64,000 nt of DNA from a virus, in the IMG/VR virus record IMGVR_UViG_2718218091_000001; one strand, written 5' to 3'. Shown here in pieces: positions 45,001 through 48,000 of the stretch. A program made the position numbers. The stretch's first letter is position 1. Each line of letters starts with the position of its first letter.

Positions 45001-48000
45001 CTGGACCAGTACAAGCCCGCTGCACTGGCCTACATCGCGGCCATCAACACCGAGCTGGCCACCGACCAGGACTTTGCCGACGCCGATGGCCGATGCGAAG
45101 TTTTGCCGGGACTCTGCCGACAAGCTGGAGCTGGCCATCGGAGCAAGCCATGGGCCCACATGGGCGACATCAACACCGCCCCTGAACACCGTGCGCGACA
45201 TTGCCGCCGCGTTCGACGCCAAGGGCTTGGCCCTGGAAAAGCTGGTGAAGGCGCAAAAAGACAGCATCAAGCTGTCCGAGGTGCACCGTGGGCAGAGCGA
45301 GCTGGCAGAGCACATCGCCCAGCTGAACGCAGCCATGCCAGCGAACTACATGCCGGCCGTGCCCGCGGACTTCGCCAATGCAGTGAAGAATAAACGCACT
45401 GTGGACAGCCTGCGCGGCGCCGTGAAACGACGAACTGGCACGCGCCAAGATCGCCGCCAGCGAGATCGCCACGCGCATCCACGCAAACCTCAAGACCCTG
45501 GACGCCAGCGGCCTGGTGGTGCACGACGCAGCCGCACTGGTGCTCAAGGCCCCGGACGACCTGGCGTTTCTCATTGCGGTGCGCAAGTTGGACGAGGAAA
45601 CCCGGCTGAACGCCGAGCGCGAGCGCATCCGGGCCGAGGAAGCGGAGAAGCTGCAACGCCAGCAGGATGAGGCAGCCCGCAAGGCTGCAGAATCCGCACA
45701 AAATCAGGCTGTAGCGCCCGCATTCATTGCCCCGGCTGCTATCAAAACTGACGCTGATGTGGTGGACGCGGAGATCGTTGCCCGCGCGCCGGAAAGTGTT
45801 GTGCAGCTGTTCCGCGCCGCGCCAGCGCCAGCCGAGCGCACCGGTACGCCGACGCTCAAGCTGGGCACGATTGCCGACCGCCTGGGCTTTGCGCTGACAG
45901 CCGACTTTCTCAAGGGCTTGGGCTTCGAGCCCGCAGCCACCGAGCGCCGGTCCTGCCTGTTCCACGAAGCCGACTTCGGGCTGATCTGCGCCGCACTGGT
46001 TCGGCACATCGAGGCTCTGCAGTCCAAGGCCGCGGCATGATTTCCGAACTCATCCACACCACCGGCAGTGCCGTGACCTGGCCCGAGGCGTTCGTCATCG
46101 TTGGACTGGCGTTTGCTGTGGCACTGGTTCTCATCGCCTGGATTCGCTCCTGTCCACCGCCCGCGTGCACGAACCCCCTTCCTGCACGCCCCCTTTCAAC
46201 AGCCACCTTCGGGTGGCTTTTTTTATGACCGCCTACTACAACGAGATCGACAAGTACGCAGCCCAGTGGCTGCGCAACCTCATCGAAGCCGGCCACATAG
46301 CCCCCCGGAATCGTGGACGAAAGGAGTATCGAAGATGTCTACCCCAGCGACTTGCGCGGCTTCGCGCAGTGCCATTTCTTCGCCGGCATTGGAGTTTGGT
46401 CCCACGCCCTGCGATCTGCCGGATGGAGTGACGACCGACCTGTTTGGACTGGTTCCTGTCCGTGCCAACCTTTCAGCGCGGCAGGCCAAGGCGCTGGGTT
46501 TGATGACGAGCGGCACCTGTGGCCCCACTTCCACCACCTCATCAAAGAGTGCCGCCCTTCAATCGTCTTTGGAGAGCAGGTTGCAAGCAAAGACGCAGAC
46601 CCTTGGATCGACCTTGTATGCGATGACCTGGAAGCCATGGGCTACGCCTTCGGGGCGGTCCCGTTTCCGTCTGCGGGCGTCGGTGCGCCGCACATCCGCG
46701 ACAGGCTCTACTGGGTGGCCGACGCCCAGCAGCACCATTGTGGACCACAAGCCACAACCGCCAATCATCGGGAATCGAAAGCCGACCGATCCGCAAATCG
46801 GCTTGGCAGATGTGGCGGTGTATCTGGCGGGCTGGGGCACGCCGACCGCATCGGAGCCGGGCGGGACGGGCGACCAGTACGTGGCGCGTTCCAAAGCGGC
46901 GACGGGCAATACCTTCCCCTCAATGCTGACGCATCAGGTGGTGATGGCGGGATGGCCGACGGCGGCCGCCAGCGATGGGTCGGGCGGGAAGGGATTTCGT
47001 CCAGGTGTGTCGATGACGGGTCGAATGCCAGACGGATCGAAAGTGACGATGGATCTGTCGGCTTCGGTGAAGCTGGCCCTTGCTCACGACCAGCCGGCCC
47101 GACTAACGGCCTCTGGGCAGATGCTGACTGGCTCTACTGCCGGGATGGCCGCTGGCGGCCAGTTAGCCCCCAGCCACAGCCGCTGGTTGATGGGTCTGCC
47201 GAGAGCCTGGGACGAGTGCGCACCGAAGTCATCACCCAAGTCGAGGAAGAAGTAAATGCGGCAACAGCACAAACCCAAGGCGGCAGAACCCAGGCAATGC
47301 GAGCACTGCTTGAAGACCTTGGAGCGCAGGCGCAACGAAGCTGGCCGGCTGGAAGGCTTCCGGGACTTCATGAGGCGCCGTTTCTGCTCGCTTTCCTGCG
47401 CCAACTCCAGGAGCAAGGGTGGCACCTCGCGGAAGGCGTCGCACTATCACGCACGGAAGCAACTAGCGGAATGCTGCGAAGCCTGTGGCACGAGCAAGCG
47501 ACTACAGGCGCATCACATCGACGAGAACTGGGCGAACAACGACCCGAGGAACCTTCAGACGTTGTGCGTGTTTTGTCACGCCTTCTGGCACGCCATGTAT
47601 CGGCGGCTTGGGATGACGCCTACGCAGCGCATGCCGAGACTGGCTTCCCTCTTGCCCACGGTGCCCGCAGTCGTGTTGGAAGACTCCGCGCCTACGGCAA
47701 TGCCATCAACGCGAAAGCCGCGCAAGCCTTCATCGAATGCGTGATGGCCTGCCAACCATAACAACCACCCCCCAGCCCGCACCACGCGGGCTTTTTTCTG
47801 GATACCCCATGCTGAAAAACCTGATCGTTTACCGAATCTCCCCCCTGTGGCCCGCCGACCTGGCAGCCATCGAACAGGCCCTGGCCGCCGCCCCCTTCAC
47901 CGAGTGCGGCCAGACGCAGGAGAAGTCCCGCGGCTGGATCGCCCCGCGCGGCGAGGCGCACGGCGCCATGGTCGAAGCCATCGGCGGCCAGTGGATCGCC

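Follow-up and report, generated by a model that had tools for sequence, protein, structure and literature searches.

Phages carry free-standing (intronless) homing endonuclease genes, which settle either within conserved genes or in the spaces between them. Among described DNA methylases, two systems are closest to the locus reported here. The first is M.EcoHK31I of Escherichia coli HK31, a heterodimeric cytosine-5 (C5) methyltransferase whose two polypeptides must associate; in the published description, its beta subunit is encoded in a different frame inside the alpha gene, and its alpha subunit also contains the target-recognition domain (PMC2836561, citing Lee, Kam, and Shaw). The second is the ShiLan domain, an insertion in DNA methylases of mycobacteriophages that hides an HNH gene in another frame (Arsenault, Gosselin, Gogarten 2025, PMC11855218; Gosselin et al. 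2023, PMC9957025); its authors detected no ribosome-binding site for this HNH and suggested that initiation is leaderless (PMC11855218). In this work, we analyzed a methylase locus in a 64,000-nucleotide (nt) stretch of viral DNA (IMG/VR record IMGVR_UViG_2718218091_000001; hereafter the window). In this locus, ~1.5 kb of DNA holds three protein-coding messages, namely, a methylase alpha gene, a beta gene, and an HNH gene, which form three long overlapping open reading frames (ORFs) on the plus strand (46225-47761).

With a probability of roughly 0.78, we read the locus as an alpha/beta split methylase that hosts a mobile homing-type HNH gene, through which the alpha frame is translated. Two-frame reading extends over about 920 nt in the overlap of alpha with beta and over about 490 nt in that of alpha with the HNH. 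These three overlapping frames are real and far more open than expected by chance. The window combines an M.EcoHK31I-type nested beta with a ShiLan-type hidden HNH, each of which is a trick already published. Here the two are combined in another family of host genes, the insertion site is defined and dual-coded, and the HNH has an evident route to its translation. Next to RNA splicing (introns) and protein splicing (inteins), such an arrangement would give selfish nuclease genes a third option for sparing the host gene: the insert is translated through as a tolerated linker. A first-pass annotation, made from the sequence alone, had noticed the three overlapping frames, the nested HNH, and the flanking duplication, all of which are confirmed below; it had also taken alpha as one frame from 46225, and a frameshift was missed.

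Alpha and beta in two overlapping frames

In the product of the alpha gene (46225-47761, plus strand, as are all features below), a C5 methyltransferase core with motifs I-VIII is followed by a long linker and then by motif X. Read in order, its frame gives the C5-methyltransferase motifs, PHIRDR, ~120 low-complexity residues, ~150 further residues, and the terminal RVGRLRAYGNAI (GNAI motif X), and the catalytic PCQ motif is present in the translation as SCPCQPFS. The Pfam family PF00145 matches residues 46-157 with 52.1 bits (cut-off 22), and phrog_363 matches at an E value of 5e-69; the TIGR00675 score is 41 bits, under the cut-off of 100.65. In the AlphaFold2 (AF2) model, residues 1-170 form a confident catalytic domain with a predicted local distance difference test (pLDDT) score of ~90, residues 170-290 are disordered (pLDDT 31-41), and the C-terminal motif X helix is confident. 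The best matches of this model in the Protein Data Bank (PDB) by Foldseek are M.HhaI and M.HaeIII (E ~1e-6, probability 1.00). The alpha consensus has no conserved residue across the stretch 170-290, which overlaps with beta. Pfam, PHROG, and the modeled fold agree in making alpha a predicted C5 cytosine methyltransferase, and the earlier statement that its frame carries the motifs of such an enzyme, including motif X, holds.

The alpha gene is not open as a single frame from 46225. The first 27 codons (46225-46305, start MTAYYNEID...) are in frame 1 and the sequence from 46307 onward is in frame 2, where an uninterrupted frame from 46313 to 47761 holds the C5-methyltransferase motifs through motif X; the span 46225-47761 is 1537 nt and not divisible by 3. 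This shift after codon 27 results from one extra C in a run of six (46301-46306). The prophage is present twice in the genome. Its sister copy, located 66,333 bp downstream, shows a single difference over this gene, a run of five C, which gives an intact alpha of 511 amino acids (aa; locus L008). The five-C reading across this run agrees with all relatives. Because 52.9 kb of the two prophage copies align with 7 indels and 0 mismatches, the frameshift in the window is probably an artefact caused by a long-read homopolymer error. The assembly does read six C in the window copy and five in the other, as it would if the extra C were real and the window alpha were a pseudogene or switched off by homopolymer slippage, with only the sister copy functional; a difference between copies that is dominated by indels is typical of long-read homopolymer error, and we consider a real extra C unlikely. 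The genome contains one intact alpha copy whether the shift is real or an artefact.

The beta gene (46335-47255) encodes 306 aa in the +1 frame relative to alpha. An AAGGAG (46321-46326) stands 8 nt ahead of its ATG, and this initiation region (46321-46337) lies inside conserved alpha codons for DERSIEDV and is arranged in the same way in an HNH-free allele (G007) and in the phages BcepC6B and epsilon15. The beta product has GSTLY..TWK, WPTP-type repeats, and a C-terminal SRWLMGLP motif that is motif IX-like, so that the second frame, ribosome-binding site, length, and motif IX-like segment given by the first-pass annotation were all recovered. Among PHROGs, beta matches methyltransferase families (phrog_1008, E 9e-37; phrog_31772, E 9e-31), and a Pfam search of beta returned no match. 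The consensus of 38 relatives keeps GSTLY.LTWK, RASARRTS, three GWPTP-type repeats, and an ARLTASG... end. The two-frame layout recurs in distant phages, namely, Burkholderia phages phiBtTUL1a and BcepC6B, Pseudomonas phage PMG1, and Salmonella phage epsilon15. The annotated records of these relatives differ in which of the two frames, alpha or beta, is called, and genes of this kind are routinely mis-annotated, with one frame called and the others missed.

The openness of the two frames was evaluated in 46 related metagenomic and viral loci with complete genes, using synonymous-codon permutation of one frame as the null. Frame openness was used because alignments are poor in the variable middle region, where per-column identity along alpha and beta did not separate the frames. 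Both frames are stop-free over the overlap in 46/46 loci, and beta is always +1 relative to alpha; since related loci are kin, this count and all locus counts below overstate independence, which weighs against our reading. The permutation gave 7.5 (alpha) and 3.6 (beta) expected stops per locus, with 0.01 (alpha) and 1.06 (beta) loci expected to be open. The third frame has a mean of 13 stops and is open in none of the loci. Chance ORFs in guanine-cytosine (GC)-rich DNA were also considered and are rejected on the permutation expectations. Judged from these comparisons of sequence, alpha and beta are a conserved dual-coding pair.

The alpha/beta split had been likened to M.EcoHK31I, and the likeness stands: both frames are open in every locus of the test and the layout extends to distant phages. 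As far as the published description of M.EcoHK31I goes, both systems have a beta ORF nested in alpha in another frame, and by analogy the window alpha and beta would form a heterodimer. The same description indicates three differences. The recognition domain of M.EcoHK31I is in its alpha, whereas the middle of the window alpha is low-complexity and disordered and the WPTP recognition-like part is in beta. The window beta, with its 306 aa, is longer. Finally, the window enzyme is a phage orphan methylase outside a type II system.

The HNH gene and its dual-coded insertion site

The HNH ORF (47256-47744) starts in the beta frame with an ATG that adjoins the beta TAA (47253-47255) and has 162 aa, just as first described. 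It encodes a putative endonuclease with an N-terminal Cys4 ribbon and an HNH core, following the pattern CxxC...HH...N...CxxC...H. PHROG HNH families match it with E values down to 5e-10, and 152 homologues were found at E <= 1e-5. In an alignment of 41 sequences, C74, C77, H86, H87, N99, C104, C107, H108, and H112 are invariant. A PDB profile search with this ORF found IcmJ/DotN only (E 8e-5). Its C-terminal ~37 residues represent what was formerly the end of beta, now displaced, which is still readable in some HNH homologues as WLMGLPP.WDDCA.

The insertion site was defined by comparison with the HNH-free allele G007, which is from the same genus, is 88% identical at the 5′ end, and has an alpha of 368 aa versus 511 aa. 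In this allele, a single 66-nt stretch encodes FPLAHG...RVGRLRAYGNAI (motif X) of alpha in one frame and the C-terminal motif of beta in the other. The window holds this segment twice, flanking the HNH insert, and both copies align to the one stretch in the HNH-free allele, which accounts for the apparent duplication noticed at first. The upstream copy (47177-47242; 41/66 nt identical to the HNH-free allele) kept the beta motif and lost the GNAI of alpha. The downstream copy (47645-47710; 50/66 nt identical) kept motif X of alpha almost unchanged and lost the beta motif. Only 30/66 nt are identical between the two copies. The 468 nt between the copy starts contain the new beta stop and nearly the whole HNH gene, and the start of the insert is similar to the sequence following it. 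By these alignments, the HNH element has unpacked the overlapping segment into two single-purpose copies, and this duplication settles the conflict between the overlapping genes by providing one copy per frame. A site that is constrained in two frames at once may also be an unusually stable homing target.

Like free-standing homing endonucleases, the element is a putative selfish nuclease gene that occupies a strongly conserved target and whose recoded flank would render the carrier allele immune; HNH-free alleles would be the ones cleaved. It differs in that the host gene of a free-standing endonuclease is split or the element is intergenic, whereas the window host ORF stays continuous via read-through. 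The first-pass annotation had proposed that an intronless homing endonuclease invaded by overprinting. Invasion agrees with the HNH-free allele, with the duplicated and diverged target, and with the rarity of the HNH and its independence from the host gene, as given below. De novo overprinting describes the HNH element less well than the insertion of a cassette whose second frame is free of stops.

To follow the host frame through the HNH, ~160 loci were fetched for the HNH homologues, and the 41-sequence alignment was used to find related loci; with a two-sequence alignment as the query, variable N-terminal patterns were chosen and almost nothing was found. Across 80 distinct loci of the window type, a single frame carries the catalytic domain, the segment ahead of the insert, and motif X, and the frame next to it carries beta and the HNH. 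The host frame is stop-free across the HNH in 78 of these 80 loci, and synonymous permutation of the HNH codons predicts an average of 5.2 stops in each locus, with 1.08 loci expected to stay open. For the third frame, 4/80 loci are stop-free across the HNH, and the GC content of the HNH is 0.47-0.64. A catalytic-domain match is present in 67 window-type loci, and in 65 of these the frame is uninterrupted from the catalytic domain to motif X. A second, more distant type of C5 methylase (GGFPCQDIS...) has the same HNH family in the same place and the same relative frame, and its host frame is open in 38/39 loci, plus 7 more that were missed by the pattern and read by eye. The stop-free passage of alpha through the HNH, first seen in the window, is supported by both sets, compared with the ~1/80 loci expected. 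Two free-standing HNH homologues, which lack a following motif X (L015 and L093), have 5 and 6 stops in the host frame. Sequence comparison indicates that selection in the linker acts mainly on the absence of stops and hardly on residues, and no purifying selection on the linker sequence is claimed.

Two side observations concern these loci. The HNH of L015 (2501-2962), with a core 72% identical to that of the window, is located after N6 methylase genes and before a primase-polymerase gene, outside any C5 methylase; linker-like residues remain in its former host frame together with the 5 stops, which suggests an escaped copy. In L024, L049, L022, and L104, the alpha ORFs have 642-1348 aa versus the usual 430-560 aa, and may contain further insertions or fusions.

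The alpha-frame linker overprinted on the HNH gene (47243-47644) was assessed through stop avoidance, residue constraint, and the AF2 model. It is stop-free and predicted to be partly helical, with three helices in the first part of the insert (alpha residues 333-396, pLDDT ~80) and disorder in residues 400-440. Homing HNH genes are often carried by group I introns in phages, and the resemblance between the start of the insert and the sequence following it, also noted for the ShiLan element, could likewise point to an insert that is removed before the protein works, as a group I/II intron or an intein, which would make the read-through product irrelevant. Several results argue against such removal. 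An Rfam search gave no intron match at E <= 1, with only a sub-threshold match to a small nucleolar RNA that was taken as chance. The strong selection against host-frame stops would be pointless if the RNA were spliced, and the HNH frame differs from the host protein frame. The linker is predicted to be helical or disordered rather than a HINT fold, and the terminal Cys/Ser...HN residues are absent from the sequence as read. The ShiLan authors were likewise negative for their element (PMC11855218). We regard splicing at either level as extremely improbable.

The loci of the second type bear on how the parts are joined. In L050 and L065, the linker and motif X continue the beta frame, and in L054 and L067 they continue the alpha frame, which suggests that motif X can belong to either subunit. 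The order of the parts in the window (motifs I-VIII in one frame, recognition and motif IX in the +1 frame, and motif X again in the first) mimics a canonical single-chain enzyme, and the beta frame running through the linker to motif X in L050 and L065 would also suit a single chain in which programmed frameshifts lead first out of alpha into the beta frame and then back or further on, with beta being no separate subunit. The occurrence of both topologies argues instead for polypeptides that assemble. Beta also has its own conserved AAGGAG and ATG, and the window type would require two shifts. M.EcoHK31I, according to the description cited above, works as two chains (PMC2836561). Programmed frameshifting is highly improbable on these grounds, and an alpha/beta pair of separate polypeptides is preferred.

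Probable mobility and translation route of the HNH

The HNH has a patchy distribution. Among 208 phage records that match the methylase gene, it is present in two, those of Komagataeibacter phages phiKX1 and phiKX2, which have the same three-gene layout. Pairwise identities of the HNH and of the host catalytic domain are essentially uncorrelated (Pearson 0.15; 52 loci, 1326 pairs), and pairs are discordant both ways (e.g., 84% versus 55%, and 42% versus 83%). This lack of correlation fits a mobile element. A decayed remnant of the phiKX1 type was also found in the contig L013 of an Acetobacter metagenome-assembled genome (279-1116), in which the 5′ part of the methylase is gone, the HNH frame is stopped, and the frame of the linker and motif X is still open.

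HNHs of the same family occur within methylase genes of three unrelated kinds, namely, two C5 types and a DPPY amino-methyltransferase. A further case is Staphylococcus phage CUB-EPI_14 (L012, ON325435.2; 1333-3138), where gp45 is annotated as one 601-aa C5 methylase of the canonical single-chain type (36% GC). This protein has an insert of ~180 aa just ahead of motif IX (RKLTEKECWRLQGF), with a 164-aa HNH ORF out of frame inside, and is by its sequence the same hidden-HNH trick in a Firmicutes phage.

The residence of one HNH family in methylase genes of three unrelated kinds, its occurrence in the C5 methylase of a Staphylococcus phage, and the apparent tie between HNH translation and beta could also be explained by a compact restriction-modification-like or addiction pair, in which the nuclease attacks host or competing phage DNA without the methylation of the cassette and the coupling to beta ties the nuclease to the methylase. 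This second proposal of the first-pass annotation found no support. Most alleles lack the HNH, as the phage records show, and the HNH has a history of exchange separate from that of the host gene. Homing insertions leave just such a duplicated insertion site on their flanks, and a free-standing HNH copy loses the host frame. A dedicated methylase-nuclease pair is therefore very unlikely. We give a slightly better, yet still small, chance to the HNH family being a functional partner of methylases, that is, a nuclease slaved in its expression to the recognition subunit, which would eliminate the genomes of competing phages by exploiting methylation state or the methylase gene itself; such a role would explain why the family occurs almost only inside methylase genes of several unrelated families.

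The beta-HNH junction (47243-47258) consists of a Shine-Dalgarno-like GAGGAAG, the beta TAA, and the adjoining HNH ATG. The gap between the beta stop and the HNH start is 0, 3, or 6 nt in 72/79 window-type loci, and a purine-rich tail coding for Lys and Arg, which is Shine-Dalgarno-like, precedes the beta stop in these loci. Because of this tight junction and its tail, translation of the HNH is probably coupled to beta by termination-reinitiation. A restart at the beta stop codon would be a plausible translation route for a hidden HNH.

Taken together, a mobile HNH in a split methylase suggests the following scheme, in which one mRNA would be read three ways. Ribosomes starting at 46225 would make alpha, composed of the catalytic core (motifs I-VIII), a disordered stretch in the shadow of beta, a small hairpin, a linker in the shadow of the HNH, and motif X, which would complete the AdoMet (S-adenosylmethionine)-binding domain. 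Initiation at the internal AAGGAG/ATG (46335) would yield the +1-frame product beta, the putative DNA-recognition part with the WPTP repeats and the motif IX-like helix, and ribosomes ending at the beta TAA may restart on the adjoining ATG to make the HNH endonuclease. Alpha, including its insert-bearing form, and beta would assemble into an active methylase in the fashion of M.EcoHK31I. The HNH would be a mobile homing-type element seated at the 66-nt segment common to motif X of alpha and the C-terminal motif of beta. It may have brought a recoded duplicate of this segment, leaving the upstream copy for beta and the downstream copy for alpha, and the stop-free second frame of the insert would let alpha still reach motif X.

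Compared with the ShiLan domain, the window element is likewise an insertion in a phage methylase gene that is missing from close alleles and adds no stop to the host frame, with the HNH ORF in another frame of the insert. In both cases, the start of the insert resembles the sequence past the insertion site, intron or intein signatures are missing, and the histories of element and host are discordant. The helices and disordered stretch predicted in the window insert resemble the loop-out hairpin that has been suggested for the ShiLan domain. The systems differ in their host genes: that of Lamina13, the one such mycobacteriophage checked here, is a DPPY amino-methyltransferase and that of the window a C5 enzyme. 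The window element also sits in an already dual-coded gene and splits a segment used by two frames. Moreover, the window HNH has an evident translation route, with the beta stop abutting its start behind a Shine-Dalgarno-like tail. The HNHs themselves are distant: that of the second type matches the methylase-nested HNHs of mycobacteriophages at 31% identity (E 8e-5), and a search with the window HNH gave no mycobacteriophage match at E 1e-3. The same trick extends to C5 methylases of proteobacterial and Staphylococcus phages.

Besides the kinship of the loci, several points weigh against a split methylase translated through a mobile HNH. The alpha copy in the window is frameshifted, and its ATG has no Shine-Dalgarno sequence and sits behind a terminator-like hairpin. 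The Pfam HNH family (PF01844) gives the HNH ORF 18.2 bits, under the cut-off of 21.4. Beta folded alone gives a poor model (mean pLDDT 56.6, predicted template modeling score 0.22). Linker identity between the two methylase types is 27.3% versus a null of 22.8%, and that of the noncoding third frame is 28.7% versus 26.0%. Since the linker residues are barely more conserved than a noncoding frame, the insert may be merely tolerated.

Prophage context of the methylase cassette

The two prophage copies are arranged in tandem with a unit of 66,333 bp (array 4131524-4264203), and their junction is near window position 52,887-52,910. Besides the 52.9 kb described above, the copies differ by 2 mismatches and 4 indels over 13.4 kb. 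As these differences are almost only single-base indels, homopolymer errors may affect other genes in the window. The methylase locus is an accessory cassette of a temperate phage and not part of a type II system. It is bracketed by two terminator-like hairpins with T-runs. The first (46201-46224; stem 46201-46218, 7 pairs, T7 tail) ends right at the alpha ATG, and the second (47774-47797) is located just past the alpha stop. The cassette looks like a self-contained insert in a region of recombination genes, with RdgC-like and exonuclease-like ORFs as its neighbors.

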